NCBI GenBank assembly: GCA_019454415.1
Contig: JACFOI010000003.1
Coordinates: 14,361 to 78,360, forward strand
Direction: 5' to 3'
Source of the DNA: Patescibacteria group bacterium
GTDB taxonomy: Bacteria; Patescibacteriota; Microgenomatia; UBA1400; PJMF01
Length of the DNA stretch: 64,000 bases
Position numbers and translations under genes: made by a program. Below, one piece after another: positions 22,615 through 50,872 of this stretch. Positions within the stretch are counted from its first letter, which is position 1; the number at the start of each line of letters is the position of its first letter. The notes below the pieces were generated by a model that was not told the origin of the DNA, did no database searches, and worked only from the letters and a program-made list of their open reading frames with translations.

Positions 22615-24306
22615 ATGGTTTTCCGGCTTCCCAAAATCCTGAGTACTTATACCGAGTGGCTTGAGAGACAGCAGACCAGCATCCTTTCGGCTGCGGTCAT
22701 TATTACGGTGGCGAACATCGCCTCGGCAGTTTCCGGATTGGTCCGGCAGCGCCTGCTCATTTCTCACTTTTTTGACACGCTCTCTTCCCGACAAGCTTAC
22801 GAGGCCTTCCTGGTCGCTTTCCAGATTCCGGACATGATGTTCCAATTGATTGTCTTGGGTGCCGTTTCAGCTGCCTTCATTCCTATCCTGACCCTCTACA
22901 AAGATAACCACGAAGAAGAGCTACGTTACATGAACTCAATGATGAACAGTGTGCTCTTGATCTTTATTGTGGTAGGGATTGTGGTCTTTATCTTTGCTGA
23001 GCCACTGACCAAGTACCGGACCGGTGAGGCATTCACTCCTGAACAGCTAACGATTGCCGTTCATATGACCAGAATCATGGTCTTTGCCCAGTTTTTCTTT
23101 GCGATCTCTAACTTCTTCACCGGCATGCTCCAGTCATACAAACGCTTCATTGTTCCGGCCGTTGCCCCGATTTTGTACAACATCGGGATCTTGGCTGGTG
23201 CCTTTCTGTTATCGGCCCAGTTTGGGATCTACGCAGCCGGTATTGGCGTGGTGATCGGAGCTGCCCTCCACATGCTGGTCCAGCTTCCCCTTGCCTTCAA
23301 GTTGGGCTTTCGCTTCAAACCGATCATCGCTGTGCGTGATCCCGGAGTAGTTCGCACCTACAAGCTCACTCCTGCCCGTACAGCCAGCTTGGCGATCAAT
23401 CAGGTCCAGCAGTTATCTGATGGATTTTTTACGACGACGATTGGCAACCTCAGCTACTTGGTGATGAACTTGGCATCAGCGTTGATCACTATGCCGATTC
23501 GTTTTTTTGGCGTCCCGATCAGTCAGGCAGCCTTGCCGTTCTTATCCGAAGAGGCAACCGACAAGGATCTCTCCCGTTTCAAGGACCTTGTCCTTAAGTC
23601 GATCCATCAAATCTCATTTCTTGCCTATCCGGCTGCCGTGCTTTTACTGATCCTCCGCGTCCCCATTGTTCGTATCGTCTACGGAACACGCAACTTCCCT
23701 TGGGAAACGACCCTGATGACTGGGCGGGTGGTGGCCATTATTACGCTTTCAATTGCGGCTCAGGCTATTGTGCAGCTGCTGATCCGAGCCTTCTATGCAC
23801 TGAAAGATACCAAGACACCACTCTATATCACCATCATTACCGTCTTTTTCTATGTAGCCGGCTCGGCATTCTCAGTCTTTGTCCTGAAAGCTGGAGTTAT
23901 TGGCCTGGCGGTGGTACTAACTATCACTAACATCTTAGAAATGATCTTTTTCTTGTTCTATCTTGATAAAAAGGTCCGTGGTTTTGTGCGCAAGGAGTTC
24001 TGGATTCCACAGCTGAAGATGATCGTGACCAGCTTTTTGATGGCCGTGTTTCTGTATCTGCCGTTCCGCATTCTGGATGAGTTGGTCTTCGATACCAGCC
24101 GGACGATGGAGCTGATTCTGTTAACACTCAGCACGGGAACAATCGGTATGTTGGTGTATGTCTACTTTGCGCTGCTCCTCGACATCCGTGAGCTCTATAT
24201 CTTTACCAACTTGGTCAATAAGTTTGGCAACTGGCAAAAAACACTCTCCAAGAGCAGCGAAGTATTGGTGGAGTCACCCAATCTGACCGACGACGTTCAG
24301 CCGTAA
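22615..24306 (+). CDS. murJ: lipid II flippase MurJ (MviN)
   Basis: N-terminal SxxxxSxxTxxSRxLG-like region. AFQIPDMMFQL, GAVSAAFIPIL. Roughly 14 predicted TMs. 563 aa. Confidence 0.85.
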   Translation: MVFRLPKILSTYTEWLERQQTSILSAAVIITVANIASAVSGLVRQRLLISHFFDTLSSRQAYEAFLVAFQIPDMMFQLIVLGAVSAAFIPILTLYKDNHEEELRYMNSMMNSVLLIFIVVGIVVFIFAEPLTKYRTGEAFTPEQLTIAVHMTRIMVFAQFFFAISNFFTGMLQSYKRFIVPAVAPILYNIGILAGAFLLSAQFGIYAAGIGVVIGAALHMLVQLPLAFKLGFRFKPIIAVRDPGVVRTYKLTPARTASLAINQVQQLSDGFFTTTIGNLSYLVMNLASALITMPIRFFGVPISQAALPFLSEEATDKDLSRFKDLVLKSIHQISFLAYPAAVLLLILRVPIVRIVYGTRNFPWETTLMTGRVVAIITLSIAAQAIVQLLIRAFYALKDTKTPLYITIITVFFYVAGSAFSVFVLKAGVIGLAVVLTITNILEMIFFLFYLDKKVRGFVRKEFWIPQLKMIVTSFLMAVFLYLPFRILDELVFDTSRTMELILLTLSTGTIGMLVYVYFALLLDIRELYIFTNLVNKFGNWQKTLSKSSEVLVESPNLTDDVQP

Positions 24307-24370
24307 TTTTCTGCCTGACAACAATCCTATTCTTGGTCTCTAGTTGAACTGTGTGTACAATGGAAATCGA

Positions 24371-24940
24371 ATGAAGAAGCCTGCCAATATCAAGGTTAAT
24401 TTGCTGCCGAAGGATCCTTTCCTCAGTACACCTGTAGGGAAGCTGTTGCAGTGGGCCTTGAGCATTGGTCGGTATCTGGTGGTCTTTACTGAATTGGTAG
24501 TGATCATCAGCTTTGCCAGCCGTTTCACGATTGACCGGCAAATCACCGACTTGAACGTCGCCATTCTCCAGAAAGAAACAATTATCGATTCCTATGGCGA
24601 CCTCGAGCAGAACGTCCGCAACGTCCAGAAAAAGATCGAGACTTATCGACAGGTCGAACAACAGGAGAATGTAACTGATATTTTCCCGGTATTAACTGAA
24701 GTTACTCCTCCTGACGTGGTGCTGACAGATCTTCAGATGCGTCCAGGCCGCGTCACTTTGACCGGGATTACTCCTTCAAACGTTTCATTAGGAATTCTGA
24801 TCAATAACTTACAAGTATCCGGACGGTTTAGTGATATCTCGGTTGAACGTATTGGAACTGCCAAAGATACGAATAGCGGATTAGGCTTCAAGATCGAAGC
24901 AAACGTCAGGAAAGTAGCAACCACAAATGCCAACCAGTAG
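24371..24940 (+). CDS. pilN: type IV pilus assembly protein PilN-like
   Basis: N-terminal IKVNLLPKD (the INLLP signature), then a single TM, then a coiled-coil/ferredoxin-like periplasmic part. Confidence 0.65.
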   Translation: MKKPANIKVNLLPKDPFLSTPVGKLLQWALSIGRYLVVFTELVVIISFASRFTIDRQITDLNVAILQKETIIDSYGDLEQNVRNVQKKIETYRQVEQQENVTDIFPVLTEVTPPDVVLTDLQMRPGRVTLTGITPSNVSLGILINNLQVSGRFSDISVERIGTAKDTNSGLGFKIEANVRKVATTNANQ

Positions 24941-25595
24941 AAGTCGACAACTGACGACCATGCTCCTCCAGTTCTATGACCGGCCAATTGCCAAGGTTTC
25001 GCTGGAGCTGTTCTTCACCATCAGTGCGGTGATTATCTTTGCCGTGTTTGCGATCCGCCCGACTCTGCAAACCATGGGGACATTGATCAAAGAACTCGAA
25101 GACAAACGTGCCCTCAATCAGCGGCTCGCCCAGAAAGTCGCTGCGCTCTCTACTGCACAAACCCAGTATGAAGCAGTCAGAGAGAGGATCTCTCTGTTGG
25201 ATGAAGCCATTCCGCCGACCCCCCAGTTTGAGAAAGCCCTACTGATCATCGAAAAGTTGGCAAGTGAAAGCCAGCTGACCATCATTAACCTGCAAGCTAA
25301 GGAAGTCCCCAAAGAGCCTGATCCTGCAGAGGACGTTCCTTTTGAGCAAAAAGAACGAGCGACGCGATCGATCGTTCTGACTGTGACCGGTGACTATCCG
25401 ACCATTCGTCAGCTGATTGAAAATATTCAAGCTCAGCGGCGGGTATTGATCGTTGATACTGTGGTCTTCTCAGTCGTGGAACAACGGGGCAAGAAAGTTC
25501 TGCAAGCTGCCATCACTGTCAACGTACCGTTCTTCGCACCGGACTTAACTAAGCCGGCAGATCCGAGCCCGACACCTGATGACATAACACCATAA
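24927..25595 (+). CDS. PilO-like pilus assembly protein (TM + coiled coil)
   Basis: Cytoplasmic stub, a single TM (FFTISAVIIFAVFAI), a long coiled coil, and overlap with pilN end. Topology and size match PilO. Confidence 0.45.
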   Translation: MPTSRSRQLTTMLLQFYDRPIAKVSLELFFTISAVIIFAVFAIRPTLQTMGTLIKELEDKRALNQRLAQKVAALSTAQTQYEAVRERISLLDEAIPPTPQFEKALLIIEKLASESQLTIINLQAKEVPKEPDPAEDVPFEQKERATRSIVLTVTGDYPTIRQLIENIQAQRRVLIVDTVVFSVVEQRGKKVLQAAITVNVPFFAPDLTKPADPSPTPDDITP

Positions 25596-25597
25596 CT

Positions 25598-26104
25598 ATG
25601 AAATCACAGCTTTCGCAACTCCAGAAAAAACAGACACTCCTGAGGATTTTTATCTTTACGTTGGTGACGATCATCGTTTGGGTGGGTGTCACTCTGCTGC
25701 GCACTCAACAAGAAACTGGAATTCGGCCAGAGCTGAACAAAAAGGCAGAGGCACTCAACCCGAATGTGAGTGCCGAGACTCTAGATCAAATTGAACAGAA
25801 ACGAGCCTTCACTGATGCAGATTTGTCTGACTTTCCAATCTACTCGATCGTGACCCTCAAAACCGGTGAGCAGCAGTTGGTCGTGTTCTCAGCTTCTGAC
25901 AAAGCCCGTCGTGAAGTGACGCTGGAAAGCGGCACTCAGCCGCCAACCTCTTCCGTCCCACCGACTACTCTGGAAACGACTGATCAAGGTCCAACAGGCC
26001 CGGTCGAAAGCACTGTGACAGTCGAGAACTCTTCAAGCGTGGCTCCAGGGGCTCAACCGGTTTCTCCACCAACGGAGTCAGTGCCTCCAGCAACCGTACC
26101 GTAA
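25598..26104 (+). CDS. small anchored protein with Ser/Thr/Pro-rich C-terminus (possible PilP-like)
   Basis: N-terminal TM. C-terminal PPTSSVPPTTLETTDQGPTGP... low complexity. Confidence 0.35.
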   Translation: MKSQLSQLQKKQTLLRIFIFTLVTIIVWVGVTLLRTQQETGIRPELNKKAEALNPNVSAETLDQIEQKRAFTDADLSDFPIYSIVTLKTGEQQLVVFSASDKARREVTLESGTQPPTSSVPPTTLETTDQGPTGPVESTVTVENSSSVAPGAQPVSPPTESVPPATVP

Positions 26105-26193: not shown

Positions 26194-27750
26194 ATGAAAT
26201 CTGCGTTTGCCCAACGTCAAATTCCGACATTGCTTGGCTTAGGTGTTTTGATTGCCGCCCTAGTGGGTGGTATTGCGTTGATCGGAACTGGGGGAGGTGT
26301 TTTCGCTCCCCGGGCAACTCCTCAGACAACTCCCAAAAACTTAAAGATGACGAACATCAAGGACACCAGCTTTACGGTCTCGTTCATGACCGATGAGGCT
26401 ACCAGTGGCTTTGTGAAGTACGGTAAATCGCCGGATGCTCTCCAAACTCAGGCCAGTGACGATCGAGACCAACTGTCCGGGAGTGTCGGCCAATATAACT
26501 CACACTACATTACCCTCCGTGACCTTGATCCAGATACCCAGTATTACTTCACCGTCGGGACAGCATCAGTGCCTCGTTTTGATAGCAACGGGACACCATT
26601 TAGCCTTAAGACTGCCAGTCGGGGCGGAAATCCGACTGCGGCTAAGACAGCCTACGGTACCGTCAATGCCGCGAGCGGAGCACCGGCAGACGGAGCAATC
26701 GTGTACATGAATATCGACGGTGTCAGTGAGTTATCGGCGCTCGTCAAAGGATCCGGCAGTTGGGCTATTCCACTTTCCAACGCTCGAACTACTGATCTTT
26801 CCGGATACGCTAACTTACAACAAACTGACCTCGTCAGCATCTTTGTTCAAGGTACTCAACTCAGCGAGACGGCCACTGCCCAAGTGACGGTAGCCGAAAC
26901 GCAGCCTGTTCCCACACTAGTACTGGGAGTAGGTTCCGGGGCAACGATCGATACAGGCTTGCAAGCTGATGCCTCTCAGGCTTTCAGCGCTGAGACAGAG
27001 ACTACTGCTGACTCTCTGACAGCCCTTAGTCAAACGACTGAGTCAAGCGACTCTTCCGAAGCCTTTGTGAGTCCATCTGTCGAACCATCTGTGTCTCCAC
27101 TCTCTCAAGAGAACTCTGAAGCTACTGCTTCCCCGACTGTCGTCCCAAGTCCCAGTACTCAAACCGTCGATACCGTTGATCTTTCTATCCCTGAACAACA
27201 AACCGTTGATACTACCACTCCGACCATCACTGGAAAGGTTACGCCGAATACTGTCGTCTATGTAGAGATCCACTCCGAGACAGAGATTACTACTCAAGTC
27301 ACCACTGATGAAAACGGTGATTTTGTGCTGCCACTCGCCAGCACTCAAGGGTTAGAGCCGGGAGAGCATACTGTTACCTTGACGTATACTGACCCGAACA
27401 CAGGGGAACAAAAGCAAGTCACTCGAACTTTTTTTGTTTCAGGCACTCTTGCACAGGCCAATCCCAGCCCCTCACCATTTGGGACGTCCAATCCGTTTAC
27501 GATTCCGTCCCCCTCTCCGTCCCCTTCGCCGGAGCTCTCACCTTCTCCGACAGCAACAGAGAGCGCAACCGCTTCTGCTTCTCCACGAGTGGTGATGCCA
27601 GCAACTACGAGTGCTATTCCTCGATCTGGCTCAACTGAGATTACTATTGGCTTAATCCTGGCCGGATTATTTATGATTGGGTTAGGTGTGTGGAGTTATC
27701 GCTACAACATGACTCAAGCACTCATTGATTCCGAAGAAGAGTCCGCCTAA
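26194..27750 (+). CDS. cell-surface protein: signal/TM, FN3-like and Ig-like domains, Ser/Pro-rich stalk, C-terminal TM anchor
   Basis: FTVSFMTDEATSGFVKYGKSP...DTQYYFTV (FN3/PAP-N-like). Ig-like GEHTVTLTYTDPNTGEQ. SPSPSPSPSPELSPSPTATESATASASP stalk. C-terminal AIPRSGSTEITIGLILAGLFMIGLGVWSYRY. Confidence 0.6.
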   Translation: MKSAFAQRQIPTLLGLGVLIAALVGGIALIGTGGGVFAPRATPQTTPKNLKMTNIKDTSFTVSFMTDEATSGFVKYGKSPDALQTQASDDRDQLSGSVGQYNSHYITLRDLDPDTQYYFTVGTASVPRFDSNGTPFSLKTASRGGNPTAAKTAYGTVNAASGAPADGAIVYMNIDGVSELSALVKGSGSWAIPLSNARTTDLSGYANLQQTDLVSIFVQGTQLSETATAQVTVAETQPVPTLVLGVGSGATIDTGLQADASQAFSAETETTADSLTALSQTTESSDSSEAFVSPSVEPSVSPLSQENSEATASPTVVPSPSTQTVDTVDLSIPEQQTVDTTTPTITGKVTPNTVVYVEIHSETEITTQVTTDENGDFVLPLASTQGLEPGEHTVTLTYTDPNTGEQKQVTRTFFVSGTLAQANPSPSPFGTSNPFTIPSPSPSPSPELSPSPTATESATASASPRVVMPATTSAIPRSGSTEITIGLILAGLFMIGLGVWSYRYNMTQALIDSEEESA

Positions 27751-27762
27751 CATACAGAAACT

Positions 27763-28485
27763 GTGTTGAGTTCTTCATACCACTTTAGCTGGCAAAAACG
27801 AACGCTTGACGTCTGTTTAGCGCTGACCTTTTTGATCTTTTTATTCCCGTTGTTTTGTGGCGTGGTACTGCTCGTACTCGCCACTTCCGGTACCCCCATT
27901 CTGTTTTGGCAGGAGCGGCTGGGACATAACAAGAAGCCATTCAAAATGCTGAAGTTTCGTACTATGCGCCCAGGAGCCGAACAGATGAAGGAGAAGTTAA
28001 TTCCTCATAATGAAGCTCCCTGGCCGATGTTCAAGATGAAGAACGATCCGCGTTTTACTCAAGTGGGCAGGTTTCTTTCCCGGAGTGGTCTAGATGAGCT
28101 TCCCCAATTTTTCCAAATCTTGACTGGTGAGATGAGCTTTGTCGGTCCGCGACCACTGCCAGTACCTGAGGCCAAAAGCTTACCCCGTTCGTGGGCATTT
28201 CGTTATGAGGTCAAACCCGGTATTTTATCCGAGTGGGCAATTGCGCCGGATCGGTATGCGTCACTAAAACGCTGGCGCGAACTGGAGCTGGAAACTGTTA
28301 AAAAAGGCTCACTCTTCAATGATCTGCGGATCATTGGCCGCGGGTTTTTCTTTATGGTGTACGCCAACAAAACGCTACTCACCGATAAACCGAAGGTACG
28401 AACTCGCCGTCCTCGCCCAAGTGTAGCGACGCAAAACTTGCCGATCGGCAGTCGAAAACGAGCGCCGCTTGGGTCGTTTGCGTAA
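27763..28485 (+). CDS. initiating polyprenyl-phosphate phosphoglycosyltransferase (Bac_transf; WbaP/PglC/WcaJ C-terminal-domain type)
   Basis: MLKFRTM, PRFTQVGRFLSRSGLDELPQFFQILTGEMSFVGPRP. The 3' 111 nt overlap the convergent GT4 gene. Confidence 0.85.
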   Translation: MLSSSYHFSWQKRTLDVCLALTFLIFLFPLFCGVVLLVLATSGTPILFWQERLGHNKKPFKMLKFRTMRPGAEQMKEKLIPHNEAPWPMFKMKNDPRFTQVGRFLSRSGLDELPQFFQILTGEMSFVGPRPLPVPEAKSLPRSWAFRYEVKPGILSEWAIAPDRYASLKRWRELELETVKKGSLFNDLRIIGRGFFFMVYANKTLLTDKPKVRTRRPRPSVATQNLPIGSRKRAPLGSFA

Positions 28486-31603: not shown

Positions 31604-33832
31604 ATGTTTACTGCTGTTGCAGAGAGAAAACAGCTTTTCTTTTTTACGCTTTTTTTCTCTGCGTGTTATTTCTTGCTATTGTTTTTGACAGAGGGGTTTT
31701 ACTCTCTATGGATTACACCAGCCCTCTTGCTATTGTACGGTGTTACTGCTTGGTACCTTCTCTTCAGAGAAAAGACAACAGTTCGTCAGCTTGATACTAG
31801 AGTCGCGATCGGCGGAGCAGTCGTGCTATTGGTACTACTGGCTCTTACTCCGTGGAGCCTCTCAATGCCAGCTAGCATCTCGCGGTGGACAACTTTAGCC
31901 CTGGGAGGTATCACTTTCCTCTTCTTTTTTACCACGCCTATTCTACAAAAACTTTCTCTCCGAACTCTTTTTACTAGCATGATTGTGCTCCATGCCCTCT
32001 TCGTGCTATTGGCACTCTTTGTGTTTGTTATTCCGGGATTGGGCGACTTCCTGCCCAGTGAGAATCTATTGAGCTTCACTGTCGGACACAATCATTCCTA
32101 CATTTTGTATCTGATCTCCCTTCCCCTGTGTTTATACTTCAGTACGCAGAGTAAAAGAAGTTGGGTGTGGCTTCTCTTAAGCGGTGTGTTCATCTTTGGA
32201 ATCATCCTCTCTTTCAGTCGGGTAGGACTCTTTTTACTCTTGATAGAGTTGATTTACTTTGTCGTCGTTCACCTTCACGGACAGCGCCTCGCACTTCTGA
32301 AACATCTGAGAACTCTGGCACTGTTATGCAGTATCTTGGTGATGATATATGGCGGATTGTTGTTCTTGCTCTCATTTTTTCCGCAACTGAGCTATGGCAC
32401 AAACTGTATTGTTCCTTTCTGGAAAGCCCAGTTCTGTAAAAACTTTGGAGCAGAGAGTCGTCCTCACTACTGGCAACAAGCACTGCAGGGTATTAAAACA
32501 AGTCCAATCTTGGGTACTGGAGGTGGAACGTTTAGCATCCTCTCTTTCCGCTACCGTCAGCATCAGGATGAGTACTCAGCCTACCCGCACAACGAGTATC
32601 TGCAGCTGATCGTGGAGTATGGCGTTGCAGGGTGGCTGATCGTGGCAGCGATAGCGATCAGCCTGCGCTTCATGTGGCAAAGGTGGCACCAAGTCTCCGA
32701 TCTGGCACGCCTGCTTATTTTTCTGAGTACGGTAACCGCGTTTGACTCGCTTTTCAACTTTAACTGGAGTTTTGTAGGCATCTTTGTGTTGGAGTCTCTT
32801 CTGTGGGCCGTGACGCTCAAAACAATCCACCTGGAGTTAGCTTCCAAAACTAAGAAAAGTAGCAGTCCACGCCTCATTTTTTTGGCTCTTCTGAGTGTAG
32901 GAGTGCCTCTCTGTTGGTTGTCTGCACGGTTTCTGTCAGCTGAGCTCCTGCTCAATCAACGCGACGAAGAGTATCTGCGACGTTTTCCTTATATTTCAGG
33001 GCGGGCCGAGCGAGCGTACTTTGACTCACAGACTTCTTCCGGCACTAAGGAGATGATTGAGGATCTGTATCGGAACAACGAAACCCTTGCTTGGCTGGCT
33101 GCGAGCAGGGCGGTAAGTCCACATACACAGCGGGATCTTTACCAGCGGTACTTAGAGCTCAATCCGATGAATCATGAGGCTCGGGTCCGTTTGATGATCG
33201 CTGCTACTCAAACCAATGATCCAAAGATTGTACTTACTCAACTGAACTGGCTATTGGATTTTTATTCTGTGACCGAAAAGCATACGATCAGGGACATTGA
33301 GCCCCAGTATTTGGAACGATTGATCAACTATGCGAACTCACTCAGTGCCGAAAATTCTGCTACGGCAGTGGACGTTACGCTGCTGGCATATCAATTTGAA
33401 CCTTGGCGGATAAATGAAGTGCAAACGATTTTTCTTCTTCAGCCACAAAAGTTTCCTCAGCAAGATGTTGCCAAGTTGCTCGATTCACTTGCTCCCTACC
33501 GACTCCAGTTTTATCTTAGTTCTCTCAATCCGTGGACCTGGGAGAAGATGCTTACTGCAGGCACCCATGAACGCTGGGCGGATATGAATCTCTATCTCAA
33601 ACTTATCTTGGTCTATACAGATTGGGATCCGCATGTTGTCTGGGCTACTATTTCTCGACTAATCACCAGTAAGTTAAAGGATCCTGAGTTCTCCGATTCT
33701 GCCCCAAAAAAGAAGGCTTTCTTAGATGCCTGGAGAAACAGTCTTGAAACCCTGGAAAAATTTGGTACTGTTGGCGATAAGCCTCTCGACACTAGTGGAT
33801 GGTCAGAGCAGATTGAGTCGTTTGCCCATTAA
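31604..33832 (+). CDS. Wzy_C (O-antigen ligase/PglL-like) polytopic membrane protein fused to C-terminal TPR-like domain
   Basis: Roughly 12 TMs. Signature loop YPHNEYLQLIVEYGVAGW. C-terminal roughly 300 aa soluble helical repeats (TPR-like). Confidence 0.75.
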   Translation: MFTAVAERKQLFFFTLFFSACYFLLLFLTEGFYSLWITPALLLLYGVTAWYLLFREKTTVRQLDTRVAIGGAVVLLVLLALTPWSLSMPASISRWTTLALGGITFLFFFTTPILQKLSLRTLFTSMIVLHALFVLLALFVFVIPGLGDFLPSENLLSFTVGHNHSYILYLISLPLCLYFSTQSKRSWVWLLLSGVFIFGIILSFSRVGLFLLLIELIYFVVVHLHGQRLALLKHLRTLALLCSILVMIYGGLLFLLSFFPQLSYGTNCIVPFWKAQFCKNFGAESRPHYWQQALQGIKTSPILGTGGGTFSILSFRYRQHQDEYSAYPHNEYLQLIVEYGVAGWLIVAAIAISLRFMWQRWHQVSDLARLLIFLSTVTAFDSLFNFNWSFVGIFVLESLLWAVTLKTIHLELASKTKKSSSPRLIFLALLSVGVPLCWLSARFLSAELLLNQRDEEYLRRFPYISGRAERAYFDSQTSSGTKEMIEDLYRNNETLAWLAASRAVSPHTQRDLYQRYLELNPMNHEARVRLMIAATQTNDPKIVLTQLNWLLDFYSVTEKHTIRDIEPQYLERLINYANSLSAENSATAVDVTLLAYQFEPWRINEVQTIFLLQPQKFPQQDVAKLLDSLAPYRLQFYLSSLNPWTWEKMLTAGTHERWADMNLYLKLILVYTDWDPHVVWATISRLITSKLKDPEFSDSAPKKKAFLDAWRNSLETLEKFGTVGDKPLDTSGWSEQIESFAH

Positions 33833-42698: not shown

Positions 42699-43511
42699 TT
42701 ACAAACCTTCAATATCATCAATTGAAGGATAAATGTTGTAACGCTTTTGGTTAATAGGGATCTGGGAGCCAATATGAACTCTATAGTTATCGAACATAAC
42801 AACTTCGTTCTCATTAACCACACGTACTGTCAGATCGGCCCAGATCACGACATCCTTGTATATAGGATGTTTCCTGATGTGTAAGTTCCCGGAGCTATCC
42901 TGAGTAATTTGCGTTGCTGGACTCACCTCTACCTTAGTAATTTTGACTAGCTGCTTGCCCAGTGAGTTAGTAACTGTATCTCCCACGTGGATCTCCTTTG
43001 CCAAGGTGGGAGCAATACTCCCCAAAAAGGTTTTGACATGAATCACCTTCTCCGTTGCATTTACTTGAGCAGTCCCGGGGACATCAGTCACGATTCCGTC
43101 AAACGTAACATCATGAAGATTGAACCTCATGGGAGTTCCATACATTAAGTTTTTCCCGCGGGCAGAGTACAGTTTAGTCCGGGTGTCGTAGGTGGCCCGG
43201 AGCCGGATATCCAAATAAACAACTTTGTTCTCCGGAGTAATTGAGTAGCTTTCTACATTTACAATCTCGGCGATTGTCCGTCCTACCACGTCCCTTTCTA
43301 GATCACCGACATGGAATCGCCATGAGTAATCATTTCTGGGGGTGTCATGTGCAGTCAGTACTTCCTGATTCGTCACTTTAAAACGAATAGTAATGTAGGT
43401 GGACTTCCGATAGAAGAAAAAGAAGAAACCGACCAGCACTACTACTGCTGCACTGAAGATGAGTGTGTCTACCCAGTGTAGCTTGCGTAACTTTTTCAGA
43501 ATTTTTTTCAT
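42699..43511 (-). CDS. N-terminally anchored uncharacterized protein (paralog of 52371-53252)
   Basis: Basic N-terminus + TM (AAVVVLVGFFFFFYRK) + beta-rich domain. Clear paralogy to 52371-53252. Confidence 0.45.
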   Translation of the reverse strand: MKKILKKLRKLHWVDTLIFSAAVVVLVGFFFFFYRKSTYITIRFKVTNQEVLTAHDTPRNDYSWRFHVGDLERDVVGRTIAEIVNVESYSITPENKVVYLDIRLRATYDTRTKLYSARGKNLMYGTPMRFNLHDVTFDGIVTDVPGTAQVNATEKVIHVKTFLGSIAPTLAKEIHVGDTVTNSLGKQLVKITKVEVSPATQITQDSSGNLHIRKHPIYKDVVIWADLTVRVVNENEVVMFDNYRVHIGSQIPINQKRYNIYPSIDDIEGL

Positions 43512-45064
43512 GCACTCCTCTTTCCTGCAGACAGATAATACCAGAACGCACCAAAACCAAGAACTAAACCCAAAAATGGGAACTCAACAATACCAATATG
43601 CGGTAAGAGTGTCCAGAAGACGAGGGCGACAAGCAGTCCACTGAGAAAGGTCAGTCTGTAGAACTGGGGTTGGCCCCTTTGAGCTGGGTTGACGATGCAG
43701 TACCTGGCTAACCAGAACAACGGTAACAAAAAAATCAGCAGTCCGATCAGTCCGATCTCCATCCACAACTGGATATATGCCAGGTGAACGACTGCGGGAA
43801 AGACGGTCATCACCCCATCCGGGAAAAGCCGTTGAAGGACATACTCATTGGTGCCTATTCCGTATCCGATAAATGGGTTGGCAATGATCGCCTCTCTAGC
43901 TTCATTGACCATCCTGACCCGGATAGCTAAACCTGCACCTTGATAACCGGCATTCACACTCAACAAAATTCTGGGAATGATCCCAAATGCACTTAATGCA
44001 AATGCAACGACTCCATAGGCTAAGATTCTTCGGCGGCCGATTTTGCGTAACACTACCAAGATTCTTTTCTTATATACCACTCCGCAGAGGAAAAGTAGCA
44101 AGACTGCTCCGATCAATACTGATCGGCTCTGTGTAAGTAAAACCACAAACAGACCAGCCAGACCCGTTCCGATAAGTGGGACTGATTTTTTTTCGATACC
44201 ATAGGGCAAAATCACCGACGACAAGAGTGCCGAAACAAAGGCTAACTGATTGTGGAACATGAAGGTTCCCATCACTCGGAACACTGCATTGTTTTCATCT
44301 AGTCCTGTGGCAAAGCTGCCCGAGCTATTTGCCTCAAACGGAAGTCCGGCACTTCGTTGAAACCACAGCTGCAGCACGCTGACAAAAAACTGTGTGCAGA
44401 TCATAGCCGTGAGTGTCAGAACAAAAAATGAAAGAAACTTTGGGTACTTGACCAGCCCAAAGCAGATTCCCAGCGCCACAAAGTACATCATGCTGTACTG
44501 GAAAAGCCAAACTATCGACAGGGCTGGGAACGGAGAATACACCGTAATGCCATATAGGCAGTAACCAACAAAAAGCAACCATACCAATGTAATTGCACCC
44601 ATTACCACTAACAGTCGCTGGGGGATCTTCCGGAAGTTTTTCAGTAGATCTCTTATCAGAGCTGCAGCTGCCAGCACAAAAAAGAAGCTGGCCATGTGGA
44701 AAAAATAAGCAATGGAGTAACCCTCATAGTATTGAGGTTCCAAAATTGCATTCCCTCGAATTACTTCTACGTCATATCCCTTATTAGGGTGAACAAACTG
44801 CAAGGTAAATATATAGGTCAGAAAAAAGCCCAAGAAAACACTTTTCAGATTTCTTGATAGTAGAATTGCTACAATAAGATATAGTAGGAAAAACTGTCGA
44901 ATGCCGTCGATCAGACCAGTAGAAGACACAGCCACTGTGAGTGCGAACAGAACAGGAGTAAAAACGAATGGCCGATCCCAAATGCTATGTACTCGTTCGA
45001 GGCAGGAACGCCCTGCCGTACGTAGAACGCTGTTTGCGGTCAATACTTTGCCAAACATACTCAA
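43508..45064 (-). CDS. Wzy_C-like (O-antigen polymerase/ligase family) polytopic membrane protein
   Basis: About 12 TMs. Loop AVVHLAYIQLWMEIGLIG similar to the Wzy_C signature. 5' end overlaps divergent GT2, so the start is uncertain. Confidence 0.55.
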   Translation of the reverse strand: MSMFGKVLTANSVLRTAGRSCLERVHSIWDRPFVFTPVLFALTVAVSSTGLIDGIRQFFLLYLIVAILLSRNLKSVFLGFFLTYIFTLQFVHPNKGYDVEVIRGNAILEPQYYEGYSIAYFFHMASFFFVLAAAALIRDLLKNFRKIPQRLLVVMGAITLVWLLFVGYCLYGITVYSPFPALSIVWLFQYSMMYFVALGICFGLVKYPKFLSFFVLTLTAMICTQFFVSVLQLWFQRSAGLPFEANSSGSFATGLDENNAVFRVMGTFMFHNQLAFVSALLSSVILPYGIEKKSVPLIGTGLAGLFVVLLTQSRSVLIGAVLLLFLCGVVYKKRILVVLRKIGRRRILAYGVVAFALSAFGIIPRILLSVNAGYQGAGLAIRVRMVNEAREAIIANPFIGYGIGTNEYVLQRLFPDGVMTVFPAVVHLAYIQLWMEIGLIGLLIFLLPLFWLARYCIVNPAQRGQPQFYRLTFLSGLLVALVFWTLLPHIGIVEFPFLGLVLGFGAFWYYLSAGKRSA

Positions 45065-45786: not shown

Positions 45787-47347
45787 CATTCACTGCTCCA
45801 AGCTTCTCAGTCTGCCAGTACTGGGCAACCTACTTTATCGGATGCAGCTTCTGATGGTGAAAGCAGGTCTCTCCACACAGTATTGGATCTCCCGAAAGGA
45901 TGTTCCCCTGCGCGGACAGCTTCTGACCGAGATCGAAAAACGGGCAGTGATCATGTTTTGTTCGGCGTGGCAGCTCGGTCGCCAATTGGAAAATTTACAT
46001 GGAAAGTATGTCTTTGATTACACAGGACCTCATCCCAAACACTTGTCTCTGACTGAGCTTTATAACCTGGAATGGGCGTTAATTCTGGCCCAAAGCGTTA
46101 CTTCCCAGAGCATCAAGAAACTGGGAAACCTTCTCCCCCAAAGCTATCCTTTTTGGAGGCCGTATATTCTTTCAGTCCATCAGCAGCTGGACGTTCAGTG
46201 TGACTTTGTCCAACAGACCCTCAATGAACTTTTAGCCCAGGGTAATACAGTCATTCTGTTTAGCCATGTTCAACAGCCTGATACAGTGAAACAAGAACTT
46301 CGTAAGCATCGTCGTCTGATCTATTTCTCGAGTGTCTGTCCGTTGCGTACCTCTCTCTTGCCATTTCGACTGCAGAAGGATGTCCAGTCAGTGTGGGAGA
46401 GTATTGTTCGTCGAACCTTGTATCAGTATGCGCCACCTCAGCATCATCCGGTCTTGTGGTGTTTTGACCCTGATGACGCGAATATCTTACACTTTTGCCC
46501 TCCCCAGACCACGATTATTTTTGATTGTGTTGACTACTACACCAGTACCGACCAAGAGTTAAATAAGAGGGTCACTCGTGATCAACGCCGCTTGATAGAC
46601 GCCGCTGACCTGATGTTTGTGAACTCCAGAACTTTAAAGAAGCTCCACTCTAAACAACGAATGGATAACTTGTTGGTTCCTCAAGGCTTTGACCAACAAA
46701 CTTTTTTTGTGAATAGCAAAGGCAGGCGTTCAAAAACGTCGATTCGTTTCTTCCAGAAACTTAATCGCACCAAAACAAAGTATCGAGCAGTTGTGTCCTT
46801 CGCCGGGGCACTTTCCTATCGAGTCGACTATCCGATGCTCATAGATCTGATCAAACACTGTCCCAAGTATTTGTTTTGTTTACCGGAGACTGAACTTTCT
46901 TGGCCGACTGAAGATCAAGCTGTAGCTTGGCAGCAGCAGCTTCAGCACCTTAGGAAGCTACCGAATGTACTCTGGTTTCCCCGGCTGCAACGCAGTGAAG
47001 TGCGGGCACTTTTGGAAAAAACTACGGTCGGGTTGATCCCTTATGACACTTCCTTTGAGTTAAATCGTTACTGTTTCCCGATGAAGTTCTTCGAGTATCT
47101 GAGCATGGGCTTGCCTGTCCTTTCTACACCTATTCACGAGTTAAAGTACTATCCTCAGTTTGTCTCACTTGGAAAGAATAGTCTCGAACTACGCAAAAAG
47201 TTACACGTTTTAGTAAGAAAGCGAGTGACAAGTCAAACAAAAGAGGCCATGAAACAGTTGTGTTTAGAACACACATGGCAGAAAAAGATTGACGCAATTC
47301 TCTCTGCTATTGATCTCTATCAACGGCGGTACCACCGATTTGTGTAG
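45767..47347 (+). CDS. GT-B glycosyltransferase (GT4-like C-terminal domain), paralog of 49616-50872
   Basis: YCFPMKFFEYLSMGLPVLSTPIHELKY aligns with CCFPMKIMEYFFAQRPVVSTPIPSLLDY in the paralog. Confidence 0.55.
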   Translation: MQRFRYNIHCSKLLSLPVLGNLLYRMQLLMVKAGLSTQYWISRKDVPLRGQLLTEIEKRAVIMFCSAWQLGRQLENLHGKYVFDYTGPHPKHLSLTELYNLEWALILAQSVTSQSIKKLGNLLPQSYPFWRPYILSVHQQLDVQCDFVQQTLNELLAQGNTVILFSHVQQPDTVKQELRKHRRLIYFSSVCPLRTSLLPFRLQKDVQSVWESIVRRTLYQYAPPQHHPVLWCFDPDDANILHFCPPQTTIIFDCVDYYTSTDQELNKRVTRDQRRLIDAADLMFVNSRTLKKLHSKQRMDNLLVPQGFDQQTFFVNSKGRRSKTSIRFFQKLNRTKTKYRAVVSFAGALSYRVDYPMLIDLIKHCPKYLFCLPETELSWPTEDQAVAWQQQLQHLRKLPNVLWFPRLQRSEVRALLEKTTVGLIPYDTSFELNRYCFPMKFFEYLSMGLPVLSTPIHELKYYPQFVSLGKNSLELRKKLHVLVRKRVTSQTKEAMKQLCLEHTWQKKIDAILSAIDLYQRRYHRFV

Positions 47348-49616
47348 CATATTGAGAGAGTTCCATAGCCGACTGTGGGTCTCTTTCTTGATAAAGCTGG
47401 GCTTGTCGGGAGAGCTGTTCCGCGAGTGGACCCTTCAGCTTGTAATTGAATGCATACTCCGGACCCATCTTTTCTTCCCATGCCAGGATAACCTTGCTAT
47501 ATGCAATCAAAACCTGGGCTTCTTGTTTTGTAGTTGAGGAGCTTTCCTGCCAGGAGGTAAGAATAAGCTCAGCGACTTCCCAGTCATACTCACCCATTCT
47601 TAGGATGTTATTCATCAACTGCTCAGCAATTTCCGGTTGTCCTTGAGCAAGTGCTTGCTGTAGTTGGAGAGATTCACCTGCATACAACGGCCGGGCATAT
47701 CGAAACACAAAATCAGTATCGAGTATGTTAAGCAGGGGGAGAGTTTCAGAAATGGGAAGTTGCGCTATCTGCTCTAGGACAGGTAAAGAAGGATATAGAA
47801 ACTGCTCGGGCTGGAGCGTATAGCTTAGCTCATAGAAATGTAGCGCTTGAATGGGGTTCTTATCCAGTAGTTGATTGGCCTTCTCTATTCCCAAAGCTGC
47901 AATGACACCATTTTCCGGATAAGAGTAGTTATCCAATAAGTTCCGGTTACTTCTTTCGATCCATGTTGTGAGCGCTTGCTCGGCCAGGTCGTTATCCTCC
48001 CCTTTCAGAGCAGCATCCACGTACTGGAAGTATCGGAGCTGATTATGGGGATCAAGCGGAATAGCAGTTTGTAGGTACTTTGCCTTTTGCGTGGAAGGAA
48101 TATTAGCTGCTTGCGCCGCGGAGTCCCAAATCCGCGGATGGTGTCCATATAAAGTGAATAGGAAGTTTTGTGTTGAAGTAGAGATAAGCTCCGGCTGGGA
48201 TAAACTGTTCTCTACCCGCCAGTATGCAAAAGGGAAAAGGGAGAGTGCTGTATCGTACTGTTTCTTTTGCCAGAAAAACACTGACGTCAGATAAAGTCCG
48301 GCCCAAAGCAGAGTACCTACTGCCAGCGTCGCAAAGTAAACCTTCACTCCCATGCCGGAAGCAGGAAGGAAGAATTGTGTGTGCTTGCGAGTAATCCAGG
48401 TACGAAACCGACGGACAAAAGCTCCCAAACTGCTTTCTTGCTTGACCTCACTGATCCAGCAAGCGGTGACAATCAAGAAAAGTAACCAAAGGCCTATCAA
48501 ATGCAGACTAAAGTTGAAAAAAGACTCCAGAATTACTGCCAATACAGCAAGGGCAAAACAGAACGACAGCCTCTGGTGTGGGAATCGCAGTTGATAGAGT
48601 CCCTTCCGAATGATCCAGAAGAAAAAAACCAAGAAGAGCAGCCCTCCCAACAGTCCGTACTCAGTGAATGCTTGGAGGAGCTCATTGTGAGCGTAACCAG
48701 AATACAGTCCCTCTCTGCTTTGGAGTCGAAGAGAAACTAAAGAGAACGTTCCGCCACCCCATCCAGTCAGCGGACGCTGGATCAAAGCTTGGAGAGCCTG
48801 TCTCCAGTACTCAGGTCTCAGTTCCTGATGAAGAGGTTTACAAAGCTGCGCTTGAAAAACCGGGTACGGACAGTCACCACTAGTCGTCATCACTAACGAC
48901 CAAGCAAGAGAGACAGCAAGTAATACTCCGAAAGAAAGAAAAAGTAACCCTGCCCCTAACTTCTTCAACTTTTTATCGGCAGTGGTAAACCACAGCACTC
49001 CTACCTCGGTAACTCCCAAGACAATACCCAAGCGGGCAAAGGTCAGTAACAAGCTGCCAAATACAAAGACTATTCCCAGCCGAGCAAGCCAGCTTTTCTT
49101 CTCTTCTGCTGTCCACCAGAGCAAAGGTAAGGCTAGTAAGAATAACACTGCTGCCTGGTTGTGGCCGTACATCGCTGTCAATAGCGTGGTACTGGGAAGA
49201 TATGATGAAAGCTGAGGAACTGCTGTATAGAGGAAAGTCAGCGCACCGAGGCACACAGCCAAGGTACTAACACCTAGGGCCATGGCTGACGTAGTCAACC
49301 ACCTTGGGTTTCTGAGAAGCGTAAAGACGAACACCAGATAAGAGAGCGCATAGAAGATAGCAGCGTTGACTGTTAAAGGGATGCTTATTGTGGTCAAGAG
49401 TGACAGGAATGTGATCCCGACCAAAGCTCCGAACAGGTAGATCGGTAAAATAAACTGTGAGACTCTTTCAAACTTAACTTCCCGAATAAAAAATAGCTCT
49501 AACAGCGCCAATAATCCAAAAAGTGGAATGCCAAGTGTTGTTTCCCCAAAAATTAAGAGCAAGAACAGCAAACAAAAAAAAATCAAAAAGTAGATGGCTT
49601 GCGAGCCTGAATACAT
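47307..49616 (-). CDS. Wzy_C (O-antigen ligase/PglL-like) membrane protein fused to C-terminal TPR-like domain (paralog of 31604-33832)
   Basis: Signature YAHNELLQAFTEYGLLGG. C-terminal roughly 330 aa helical repeats. Confidence 0.75.
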   Translation of the reverse strand: MYSGSQAIYFLIFFCLLFLLLIFGETTLGIPLFGLLALLELFFIREVKFERVSQFILPIYLFGALVGITFLSLLTTISIPLTVNAAIFYALSYLVFVFTLLRNPRWLTTSAMALGVSTLAVCLGALTFLYTAVPQLSSYLPSTTLLTAMYGHNQAAVLFLLALPLLWWTAEEKKSWLARLGIVFVFGSLLLTFARLGIVLGVTEVGVLWFTTADKKLKKLGAGLLFLSFGVLLAVSLAWSLVMTTSGDCPYPVFQAQLCKPLHQELRPEYWRQALQALIQRPLTGWGGGTFSLVSLRLQSREGLYSGYAHNELLQAFTEYGLLGGLLFLVFFFWIIRKGLYQLRFPHQRLSFCFALAVLAVILESFFNFSLHLIGLWLLFLIVTACWISEVKQESSLGAFVRRFRTWITRKHTQFFLPASGMGVKVYFATLAVGTLLWAGLYLTSVFFWQKKQYDTALSLFPFAYWRVENSLSQPELISTSTQNFLFTLYGHHPRIWDSAAQAANIPSTQKAKYLQTAIPLDPHNQLRYFQYVDAALKGEDNDLAEQALTTWIERSNRNLLDNYSYPENGVIAALGIEKANQLLDKNPIQALHFYELSYTLQPEQFLYPSLPVLEQIAQLPISETLPLLNILDTDFVFRYARPLYAGESLQLQQALAQGQPEIAEQLMNNILRMGEYDWEVAELILTSWQESSSTTKQEAQVLIAYSKVILAWEEKMGPEYAFNYKLKGPLAEQLSRQAQLYQERDPQSAMELSQYATQIGGTAVDRDQ

Positions 49617-50872
49617 CAGGTAGATGGTATCATCTCGCTGAGATACTCATCAACGGAATCCAGCTTGCGCTTCCATGTTTGATTGAGGGCTATGTTCCGA
49701 AGCTTTTGTTGTTGATCTTTCGACCATTTTACTTGGAGGGCCTTTTGAATAGCCCTGGAAAACTGTCGAGATGTATTACCAAAGAAAACAAACTCTTTAT
49801 AGTCTAGTAAGGAAGGGATGGGCGTTGAGACTACTGGTCTTTGTGCAAAAAAGTACTCCATGATCTTCATCGGGAAGCAGCACACATTAAACTCCCACTG
49901 TAAGTCATAAGGAACGATCAAGACATCGCATTCTTTCATCATCGGAAGCAGCTGATTTCTTTTCAGTAATTGAATCCAAGTCACATTTGTTTTTCTCAGT
50001 AGGTGATCAAGTTTTTTTTCGCTGGCCTCACTCTGGCCTACCGATTGATCTTTTCCTCTAGGCCCCACAAATAAAAAATTCCACTCAGGATGCTGCTGCG
50101 TGACTCGCAGTAACATCTCTACATCCAAACGTTGGTTCACACCGCCGAAAAAGCCGATCAACGGACGTGTTTCTTTTCGTAGTTTTTGCAACTTCCTCCG
50201 AACTGCCAAAGGAGGCTGGGTGGGGGTTTTGAATCCCTGGAGATCAAAGCCCTGAGGGACTTGCCGCGGAGCGATCTGTGCAAGTGGCTCTATCCGCGAC
50301 AAAACGGGCCGCGTCAGAACTGTAATGCTACGGGCAGCTTGGATTAACAGCCGCCGCTGCTGGTCAAGCTTCTGCCTTGATTGAACATCCATTGTCGTAT
50401 GCCAATCCACACAGTCAAAGTGGAGATGCCAGCTTTTAAAGAAAGGCAATACGTCAATATCCTGGGGATGAAAAATCCATAGTATCCGCTGAGCGTCTGG
50501 TTGTTGCCTCCCGATAAGTAAGGAAAAGAGCAAAAGATTAAGCTGAAGATTAAGATATTTAGAAAATGAGAACCTTTGGAAAGGCAAAAACTGGAATACA
50601 CCTAAATAGATTGGCTGTCTGAGAGCCTTTAGTTGATCTGCAGTTCGGAGCGGAAGGAAACTTCGCGCTTGTGTAACTCCATTTAACCAATGCTTCCATC
50701 CGGTTTTTCCTCGCCAGCTTTCCCCAAGAGCCAGTATAATGACCACATTTTGAGCAGCTAGCTCGCCTGCTGTTCGAAAAACAAAGTCGCAAATGCCTTC
50801 CGGGCGATCATACGTCGGAATACAAACTAACTTATGGCTCAAAAATCGTCGGTGTTGCAAGCTACTTTTCAT
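49616..50872 (-). CDS. GT-B glycosyltransferase paralog
   Basis: See 45767-47347. Shares 1 nt with the upstream gene. Confidence 0.55.
   Translation of the reverse strand: MKSSLQHRRFLSHKLVCIPTYDRPEGICDFVFRTAGELAAQNVVIILALGESWRGKTGWKHWLNGVTQARSFLPLRTADQLKALRQPIYLGVFQFLPFQRFSFSKYLNLQLNLLLFSLLIGRQQPDAQRILWIFHPQDIDVLPFFKSWHLHFDCVDWHTTMDVQSRQKLDQQRRLLIQAARSITVLTRPVLSRIEPLAQIAPRQVPQGFDLQGFKTPTQPPLAVRRKLQKLRKETRPLIGFFGGVNQRLDVEMLLRVTQQHPEWNFLFVGPRGKDQSVGQSEASEKKLDHLLRKTNVTWIQLLKRNQLLPMMKECDVLIVPYDLQWEFNVCCFPMKIMEYFFAQRPVVSTPIPSLLDYKEFVFFGNTSRQFSRAIQKALQVKWSKDQQQKLRNIALNQTWKRKLDSVDEYLSEMIPST

Follow-up and report, generated by a model that had tools for sequence, protein, structure and literature searches.

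Two Wzy_C proteins with outward TPR-like tails in a Patescibacteria glycan cluster as candidate terminal ligases for a surface acceptor

What do two long membrane proteins, encoded within a dense cluster of glycan-synthesis genes, transfer, and onto which acceptor? The question arises from a 64-kb stretch of DNA from a Patescibacteria MAG (the window hereafter), in which the proteins that we call A and B join a Wzy_C membrane core to a long soluble tail. Little is understood of the envelope of CPR/Patescibacteria, which lack LPS and whose life as epibionts depends on surface contacts and pili. Judging from sequence, modelled structure and analogy with known enzymes, we consider that A and B could be terminal ligases of the WaaL/PglL fold, most likely moving glycan to a surface protein in the manner of O-oligosaccharyltransferases (O-OTases) such as WsfB and PglL, a reading to which we give a probability of about 45%.

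Both ORFs are present as the first-pass annotation gave them, and the paralogy that it proposed was borne out by a 28% identity over 618 aa (E 2e-36). They correspond to the database entries MBW7944002.1 (A, 742 aa) and MBW7944013.1 (B). A longer reading of A, starting at 31481, was dropped because it overlaps the divergent upstream GT gene, and because the N-termini of homologs and the database entry favour 31604. A promoter/terminator scan around A was uninformative, with scores at or below shuffle expectation. The two proteins are built as follows:

31604..33832, + strand: ORF A, long Wzy_C protein of 742 aa, with a 12-TM WaaL-fold core, TM13 and a TPR-like tail
32186..32644, + strand: Pfam Wzy_C domain (PF04932) of A, residues 195-347 (E 6.8e-17, 62.1 bits against a gathering cut-off of 31.7)
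32378..32593, + strand: large extracytoplasmic catalytic loop of A, residues 259-330, with C268/C278, R286, GxGGG (304-308) and H329-N330
32867..32950, + strand: extra TM13 of A, residues 422-449, with the K/R-rich cytoplasmic loop ASKTKKSSS just before it
32951..33829, + strand: extracytoplasmic all-alpha TPR-like tail of A, residues 450-742
47307..49616, - strand: ORF B, long Wzy_C protein of 769 aa, paralog of A
47310..48269, - strand: tail of B, residues 450-769, homologous to the tail of A (hhalign probability 98.3%)
48630..49076, - strand: Pfam Wzy_C domain of B, residues 181-329 (E 1.1e-11, 45.2 bits against the same cut-off of 31.7)

The core displays the WaaL-type fold of 12 TM helices, in which the loop that joins TM9 to TM10 is large and faces outward. 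The 12 helices announced by the first-pass annotation are therefore correct for this WaaL-like core, but not for the whole protein, which has 13 in the AlphaFold model (pLDDT 82.6). The loop motif quoted there is real, reading PHNEYLQLIVEYG in A (residues 328-340) and AHNELLQAFTEYG in B. Its H329, N330 and G340 are near-invariant among 62 relatives, as are R206 and R286, and GxGGG is likewise nearly invariant. R286 and H329 align to the VRLKIW and AHND motifs of WaaL 7tpg. The counterparts of R206/R286/H329 are R215/R288/H338 in EcWaaL and R224/R298/H349 in NmPglL (PMC3643930), where the equivalence of R206 to the EcWaaL Arg is by position only. Against the PDB, the 62-sequence profile matched 9rmk (“oligosaccharyltransferase”, E 4.9e-6) and, more weakly, WaaL (E 4.1e-4); the 9rmk match was lost with a smaller core-only profile of 13 sequences and is therefore given little weight.

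Transporters and structural membrane proteins could have this fold as well. JGI labels some of the related Wzy_C+TPR proteins “putative inorganic carbon (HCO3-) transporter”, and the IctB-family proteins, of which cyanobacterial IctB-type members were once annotated as bicarbonate transporters, belong to Wzy_C (PMC4594306). That A and B are such proteins and not glycan transferases seems very improbable, given that Arg/Arg/His and GxGGG, their catalytic motifs, hardly vary, that their genes lie within a dense glycan-synthesis cluster with an initiating glycosylphosphotransferase and more than ten GTs, and that the transporter label was passed on by annotation and does not come from a functional test. 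As a separate observation, the Arg/His motifs are kept in all four Wzy_C proteins, and the use of the Arg/Arg/His motif as a ligase-versus-polymerase marker was rejected because the short Wzy_C paralogs described below, when their sequences were read, have equivalent residues.

In the AlphaFold model, TM13 takes the tail of A across the membrane, and this 13th helix is thus predicted to place the tail outside the cell, next to the catalytic loop. The location on the side of the catalytic loop, as originally proposed, is supported by the parity of the 13 TM helices, by the K+R bias (family means of 8.4 in “in” loops and 0.37 in “out” loops) and by the Cys268/Cys278 pair in an “out” loop, kept in 60 of the 62 sequences. 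The topology check had been set beforehand, with a cytoplasmic tail as the refuting outcome, and the tail did not come out as cytoplasmic.

The identity of the tail as a TPR domain must be worded more cautiously. The family profile and the structure indicate a TPR-like helical repeat, whereas neither single sequence passes the Pfam TPR models: these do not match the tail of A, and their matches to the tail of B are sub-threshold (TPR_3 at E 0.007, with 16.9 bits below a cut-off of 20.7, and TPR_19 at E 0.95). The 62-sequence family profile matches consensus TPR proteins with an E of 1.2e-24, and one stretch of 100 residues aligns with 2fo7 (E 4.6e-9). The first ~155 residues of the tail form roughly five short helix hairpins and the remainder a bundle of longer helices. 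The profile of the B subfamily alone barely detects TPR (E 0.5), so the TPR-likeness of B derives from its homology to the tail of A, the two tail subfamilies being homologous by themselves (hhalign E 1.6e-14 over 220 columns). At 50% identity, the Patescibacteria tails group into ~70 clusters that constitute a family of their own; of 62 members, only 4 reach the threshold of a Pfam TPR model. Essentially all occurrences of this tail are fusions to a Wzy_C core, at one and the same place (~70 of 88 tail-profile matches among 1.84e9 representatives), with a Wzy_C match in 61 of the 62 members scanned.

The genomic context bears on the reaction that A and B would catalyse. The relevant neighbours in the window are:

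22615..25595, + strand: genes for MurJ (MOP-family flippase), PilN-like and PilO-like proteins, opening a conserved block
25598..26104, + strand: bitopic protein of 168 aa with an S/T/P-rich C-terminus, kept in the conserved block
26194..27750, + strand: surface protein of 518 aa, candidate glycan acceptor, with fn3/Big_13 domains, 34% S+T+P, SPSPSP tracts and a C-terminal TM anchor
27763..28485, + strand: initiating polyprenyl-phosphate glycosylphosphotransferase (PGT, Bac_transf)
42699..43511, - strand: DUF4330 bitopic protein, partner of the short Wzy_C protein C
43508..45064, - strand: short Wzy_C protein C, 518 aa, without a tail, candidate polymerase of sub-cluster 1
50834..52387, + strand: short Wzy_C protein D, 517 aa, paralog of C (24% identity), candidate polymerase of sub-cluster 2
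52371..53252, + strand: DUF4330-like bitopic protein, partner of the short Wzy_C protein D

A and B are each found in their own sub-cluster, and each sub-cluster has its own pair of short Wzy_C and DUF4330 proteins. The short Wzy_C is very unlike A (BLASTP E 0.79), and its co-occurrence with the DUF4330 partner extends from the window to six other loci (L002, L003, L006, L007, L010 and L011). The 64-kb window holds neither a dedicated Wzx nor a Wzz-family protein. PDB sequence searches with DUF4330, u537 and the short Wzy_C gave nothing useful, we found no literature on DUF4330, and NCBIfam has no match for A, B, the short Wzy_C proteins, the DUF4330 proteins or the GT-C-like ORFs.

In the pathway that we propose, a glycan would be built on a polyprenyl-PP carrier, started by the neighbouring Bac_transf PGT and extended by the GT4/GT2 enzymes of the cluster, and a flipping step would bring the lipid-linked glycan across the membrane. 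The separate short Wzy_C and DUF4330 pairs of the two sub-clusters might polymerise it, and the long enzyme would then move it en bloc from its lipid carrier onto a hydroxyl group of an acceptor at the surface. Each paralog may work in one of the two glycan sub-pathways, and two copies could plausibly mean two specificities.

A different assignment would make A and B Wzy-type polymerases, their tail being a built-in co-polymerase, chain-length or export scaffold, and would leave the short Wzy_C proteins as ligases or as polymerases of other glycans. We regard this as unlikely. The short Wzy_C with its bitopic DUF4330 partner recurs in most loci and is the better fit to a polymerase and co-polymerase, and the nearest solved structures to the long enzymes, by both fold and sequence, are a ligase and an OTase, with no solved Wzy among the matches. 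In L004 and L012, the long enzyme comes directly after the PGT, and GTs are few or missing in the neighbourhood, an arrangement that fits the transfer of a short glycan better. Moreover, the long enzyme adjoins Wzm/Wzt ABC-transporter genes in two loci, one of which (P0082) shows no short Wzy_C on its 10.7-kb contig. The Wzm/Wzt pathway needs a ligase and not a Wzy, which favours the ligase reading, and WsaB of Geobacillus stearothermophilus likewise acts downstream of a Wzm/Wzt transporter (PMC2943079). The terminal ligase/O-OTase role thus draws its support from the separate short Wzy_C and DUF4330 pair, together with a conserved synteny block.

This block runs in the order MurJ, PilN, PilO, small protein, S/T/P-rich surface protein, PGT and long Wzy_C, and it persists while the identity of the long enzyme drops to 26-38%. 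The PGT is syntenic with the long Wzy_C gene in the window, L002, L004, L005, L007 and L012, and the gene for the S/T/P-rich surface protein lies beside both in five divergent loci; this reading of the context leaves out the high-GC loci L018 and L023, whose ORF lists are noisy. The surface-protein orthologs contain 31-34% S+T+P and low-complexity S/P/T/A tracts similar to the target regions of PglL (PMC3643930), and O-OTase genes are often near the genes of their substrates (PMC3643930, PMC12645811). We therefore consider it most likely that the acceptor is a protein, which the TPR-like tail would hold or select. The 518-aa surface protein (26194-27750) would be the prime candidate, with the small S/T/P-rich protein or pilins as alternatives; no S-layer gene was recognised in the window.

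Lipid A-core, which the first-pass annotation had discounted as an acceptor, is indeed implausible since the sequence comes from a Patescibacteria MAG and CPR genomes are reported to be without lipid A/LPS genes (PMC5220378); lpx/kds genes were also not found in the 64-kb window. Its positive proposal of a protein acceptor stands only in part. It is favoured by the surface-protein gene that in five loci neighbours both the long Wzy_C gene and the PGT, but the idea was already published, Wzy_C ligases that act on glycolipids are known in monoderms (TacL, PMC5727136), and the PglL/PglS marks PglL_A (PF15864) and Wzy_C_2 (PF11846) are absent from A and B (none at E<=1), which counts against the O-OTase reading. 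Ligation to a non-protein acceptor seems less probable to us. Such an acceptor could be another envelope glycan or a glycolipid of the membrane, the kind that TacL uses in making pneumococcal LTA, and the tail would then dock partner proteins or measure or hold the polymer. TacL and WaaL (397-419 aa) are without a TPR extension (PMC5727136), whereas the outward TPR-like fusion is fixed across the A/B family; the linkage to genes for S/T/P-rich surface proteins would be left unexplained; and a glycolipid anchor is hard to name in CPR, reported to be without fatty-acid and lipid A synthesis (PMC5220378). The conserved block itself may serve envelope biogenesis in general and not pair an enzyme with its substrate, and its MurJ, which scores 269 bits where the NCBIfam equivalog cut-off is 235.55, may be a plain lipid II flippase.

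The preferred reading of A and B as terminal ligases with a protein acceptor can be set against known systems. WsfB, the S-layer O-OTase of Paenibacillus alvei, has a Wzy_C core followed by a C-terminal TPR and was matched by its described architecture, while in the WsaB and WsaA pair of G. stearothermophilus the TPR sits on the neighbouring WsaA and not on WsaB; both WsfB and WsaB belong to a monoderm-type envelope and a surface-glycan cluster, as do A and B (PMC2943079). Unlike WsfB, A and B come from Patescibacteria, and their TPR has diverged so far that Pfam no longer detects it, with a helical bundle coming after it. The Gram-negative O-OTases PglL, PglS, TfpO and TfpM share the Wzy_C core and the Arg/Arg/His set (PMC3643930), and they transfer glycans en bloc to Ser/Thr in low-complexity regions, with genes that often adjoin that of the substrate (PMC12645811). 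In contrast to these enzymes, the C-terminal domain of A and B is a TPR-like solenoid of ~300 aa. WaaL of Cupriavidus metallidurans (7TPG/7TPJ) lacks both TM13 and the outward TPR domain, is only marginally similar in sequence to the A/B family (E 4e-4 to 0.4) and has lipid A-core as its acceptor, which is not expected in CPR (PMC5220378). TacL of S. pneumoniae is a Wzy_C ligase in an LPS-free organism, but its 397 aa include no TPR extension and its acceptor is a glycolipid (PMC5727136). Finally, TfpW, the pilin arabinosyl OTase of P. aeruginosa (bioRxiv 10.1101/2020.04.19.049825), and the eukaryotic glycosyltransferases TMTC1-4 (PMC7001481, PMC7801869) are polytopic, with a C-terminal non-cytoplasmic TPR and protein acceptors. 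Their cores are GT-C (ArnT/PMT-like) and use polyprenyl-P-monosaccharide donors, so they offer an analogy of design and are not core homologs of A and B.

A broader idea, which we hold only tentatively and consider rather unlikely, is that this locus could represent the first general en bloc protein O-glycosylation system of CPR. It would comprise the MOP flippase, PilN/PilO, the surface protein, the PGT and the TPR-tailed enzyme, whose tail would pick surface or pilus-associated acceptors, and the short Wzy_C and DUF4330 pair would be an unrecognised polymerase and co-polymerase replacing Wzy/Wzz. In any case, the lineage-wide synteny of PGT, flippase, TPR-tailed ligase and S/T/P-rich protein offers a concrete, testable candidate for CPR surface glycosylation, and bioconjugate vaccines lend a practical interest to O-OTases that follow new acceptor rules (PMC12800693).

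The suggestion that the architecture is unusual did not survive our searches. Pfam TPRs are found in 12 of 48 profile-search matches, and all ten core relatives tested (from Armatimonadota, Elusimicrobia, Bacillota, Hebobacteria, Chthoniobacterales and FCPU426) combine Wzy_C with canonical TPR. The combination is thus common across bacterial phyla, which makes the find fairly ordinary; the architecture is already known, and the view that a TPR denotes a protein acceptor is in print for the S-layer O-OTase WsfB and PglL (PMC2943079). Full-length relatives were found in just four GTDB species genomes in a genome search with a B-centred alignment; with another family alignment, 44 stretches matched, none of them a relative, and a third word-indexed homolog search yielded no further family members. 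These widespread Wzy_C+TPR proteins are essentially uncharacterised, and knowing the partner of the outward TPR (protein, glycolipid or enzyme) would allow ligases, O-OTases and polymerases to be separated by sequence, which is currently impossible. The nearest core relatives outside Patescibacteria, from Armatimonadota, Elusimicrobia, Bacillota, Hebobacteria, Verrucomicrobiota and cyanobacteria, are annotated as “O-antigen ligase/TPR repeat protein” and have the same domain order and spacing as A and B, with Wzy_C at about residues 150-390 and TPRs thereafter, but Pfam recognises textbook TPRs in their tails (E down to 1e-36), unlike in that of Patescibacteria.

Two long Wzy_C proteins with a C-terminal tail, A and B, are encoded in the window by intact ORFs:
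31604-33832, + strand: ORF A, 742 aa
47307-49616, - strand: ORF B, 769 aa

By exact-sequence match they are MBW7944002.1 and MBW7944013.1, respectively, both named 'O-antigen ligase family protein [Patescibacteria group bacterium]' in the database. Pfam Wzy_C was detected above the gathering threshold in A (E 6.8e-17, residues 195-347) and B (E 1.1e-11, residues 181-329), and the two are paralogs (28% identity over 618 aa, E 2e-36), which agrees with their first-pass annotation as Wzy_C proteins. The H-N-E loop motif quoted there is also present in both (PHNEYLQLIVEYG in A, AHNELLQAFTEYG in B), H329, N330 and G340 of A being nearly invariant among 62 relatives. An upstream start of A at 31481 was discarded, as the extended ORF overlaps the divergent upstream glycosyltransferase gene and is unsupported by homolog N-termini.

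The AlphaFold2 model of A, obtained from ten family sequences (mean pLDDT 82.6, pTM 0.73), displays thirteen membrane helices rather than the 12-TM core initially described: nine helices, a 72-residue loop (259-330), three more helices and, after a short K/R-rich loop, the extra TM13 (residues 422-449). A core-only profile aligned end-to-end with WaaL 7TPG, R286 and H329 falling on the VRLKIW and AHND motifs. Together with R206, they are near-invariant across the family and are the counterparts of three E. coli WaaL residues that are essential and kept by PglL (PMC3643930). Therefore, domain, fold and residues all place A and B among the Wzy_C/WaaL-fold transferases, as enzymes with ligase/OTase catalytic residues on an outward loop; next to these residues, a non-enzymatic role is highly improbable. 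The 62-sequence family profile also matched PDB 9rmk_A, a 610-residue solved 'Oligosaccharyltransferase' chain, at E 4.9e-6, better than WaaL; this match disappears with the smaller core-only profile.

Loop charges were counted in the 62 family members, with helices taken from the A model and the N-terminus assumed inside. Short 'in' loops had a mean of 8.4 K+R in 33 residues, against 0.37 in 38 residues for short 'out' loops, and the large loop holding the catalytic residues lies on the 'out' side, with a Cys268/Cys278 pair kept in 60/62 sequences. This charge bias and the position of the catalytic loop indicate that TM13 puts the tail outside, beside that loop. A cytoplasmic or non-TPR tail, which the first-pass annotation had named as refuting its reading, was not observed.

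The tail of A is all-helical (residues 454-741, pLDDT about 90), its first ~155 residues forming about five short hairpins and the remainder a longer-helix bundle, and that of B is homologous to it (hhalign 98.3%, E 1.6e-14). Pfam TPR models gave zero matches in A and two sub-threshold ones in B (TPR_3 and TPR_19), so that the TPR assignment fails for single sequences, whereas profile and structure sustain it for about half of the tail. Indeed, the family profile matched consensus TPR proteins (E 1.2e-24; in a single stretch, ~100 residues or three repeats, E 4.6e-9), and an exhaustive search found generic multi-TPR proteins matching tail positions ~50-130.

A search of 1.84 billion cluster representatives with the tail profile retrieved 88 proteins (E<=1e-3); in about 70, which are 680-950 aa long, the tail starts at residue ~410-470. 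Wzy_C was present in 61 of 62 scanned tail proteins and a Pfam-detectable TPR in four, indicating a diverged, lineage-specific TPR-like domain essentially restricted to this fusion. Pfam TPRs occurred in 12 of 48 profile-search matches, and all ten core relatives scanned (from Armatimonadota, Hebobacteria, Bacillota, Elusimicrobia, Chthoniobacterales, FCPU426 and one unassigned MAG) carry Wzy_C followed by textbook TPRs. The Patescibacteria proteins are therefore a diverged branch of a Wzy_C+TPR architecture that is not rare and spans several phyla. The protein-acceptor interpretation is reasonable, not new; specific to this case are the diverged subfamily and its well-conserved locus.

Concerning known classes, A and B fall outside the PglL/PglS-class O-OTases by published markers, because PglL_A and Wzy_C_2 are absent (PMC12645811), nor can they strictly be termed WaaL. 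They match WsfB-type architecture, a likeness at the architecture level.

The surrounding chromosomal region encodes RNR, two class A PBPs, LepA, SmpB and Cmk. After these genes comes a roughly 40-kb glycan cluster with a small Bac_transf glycosylphosphotransferase (PGT), many GT4/GT2 enzymes, methyltransferases, a carbamoyltransferase, WecG/TagA, PIG-L, an epimerase, a PQQ-propeller/DUF5060 protein, two multi-TM GT-C-like proteins and four Wzy_C proteins in all. Two of the latter are short (518 and 517 aa), mutual paralogs (24% identity) without BLAST similarity to A, and each adjoins a gene for a bitopic DUF4330(-like) protein:
43508-45064, - strand: short Wzy_C; 42699-43511, - strand: DUF4330
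50834-52387, + strand: short Wzy_C; 52371-53252, + strand: DUF4330-like

This pair (short Wzy_C of ~505-520 aa with its domain at residues ~300-450, partner of ~270-293 aa) recurs in the window and in related loci (L002, L003, L006, L007, L010, L011), and may represent a polymerase with a co-polymerase-like partner; no literature mention of DUF4330 was found. A separate short class thus shares clusters with the long enzymes, and it is quite unlikely that the latter are themselves polymerases with the TPR as built-in scaffold.

Further genes of the cluster are:
35789-38782, + strand: 997-aa protein with a PQQ_2/BamB-like beta-propeller, DUF5060 and a weak apiosidase-like catalytic region, conserved within the cluster at 44-84% identity (L001, L002, L003, L010)
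38779-39978, - strand: GT2 resembling polyprenyl-phosphate sugar synthases, with TM helices at its C-terminus, in divergent orientation to the next gene
40015-41811, + strand: 598-aa multi-TM protein, HDE motif in the first outer loop
53268-54881, - strand: 537-aa multi-TM protein, LDEQ in the first outer loop

The last two look like GT-C glycosyltransferases, with no sequence matches in Pfam, NCBIfam or PDB.

Two gene orders are conserved. The first, LepA...MurJ-PilN-PilO-small protein-~510-aa surface protein-PGT-(0-3 GTs, or short Wzy_C + DUF4330)-long Wzy_C, was found in the window, L002, L004, L007/L013 and L012, with long-enzyme identity down to 26-38%; in L004 and L012 the PGT directly precedes the long enzyme. 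The second, GT-C-like-DUF4330-short Wzy_C-GT-long Wzy_C...short Wzy_C-DUF4330, was found in the window, L003, L010 and L011. Wzm/Wzt ABC-transporter genes adjoin the long enzyme in L006 and in the P0082 locus. The surface protein has an N-terminal signal or anchor, fn3/Big_13 domains, a C-terminal TM anchor and 31-34% S+T+P with SPSPSP/TPSPTP tracts, all retained in orthologs (43-75% identity):
26194-27750, + strand: ~510-aa surface protein of the window (orthologs: L002 4657-6180, L004 3633-5171, L007 15414-16970)

At its C-terminus, the motif [MV]P[AS]T.S..P.SGS precedes a TM helix and an acidic tail, an arrangement that looks like a sorting signal.

The long enzymes would be terminal ligases that load a surface acceptor with a polyprenyl-PP-linked glycan, polymerase and co-polymerase-like functions would come from the short Wzy_C + DUF4330 pairs, and the two long paralogs could serve two sub-pathways. 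The host group (CPR/Patescibacteria) is reported to lack LPS (PMC5220378). A protein acceptor, as first proposed, is favoured (probability about 0.45) because the outward TPR fusion is fixed, because the genes are linked to S/T/P-rich surface proteins, and because of the precedents of WsfB/WsaA-WsaB (PMC2943079), TfpW (bioRxiv 10.1101/2020.04.19.049825) and TMTC1-4 (PMC7001481). A glycolipid or other non-protein acceptor has its own precedent in TacL (PMC5727136) and appears rather unlikely. The conserved locus is a candidate for surface-protein glycosylation in CPR that can be put to the test.

In the block that MurJ opens (22615-25595, + strand; also L002, L004, L007, L012), the PilN- and PilO-like genes directly follow MurJ and always have the small protein and the S/T/P-rich surface protein downstream; no PilM, PilB or PilC lies near them in these five loci, and they may belong to an envelope complex other than a pilus machine. 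In a type IV pilin-like ORF (22019-22440, - strand), the class III signal motif reads LLG|FTLIELMVVVAIMGIV; no in-frame ATG, GTG or TTG lies between the upstream stop and this motif, which implies a non-canonical start or a sequence error.

Full-length relatives in the GTDB species set come from four genomes, one named Patescibacteria UBA924 and three titled 'uncultured Pseudomonadales' with Patescibacteria-type synteny. The MAG records L009 (CAZKNL010000059.1), L011 (CAZKNL010000005.1), L012 (CAZMXT010000004.1) and L013 (CAYUQY010000010.1), titled 'uncultured Pseudomonadales bacterium', share the LepA-MurJ-PilNO-PGT-long Wzy_C synteny with Patescibacteria UBA924, and their Pseudomonadales label is probably wrong.
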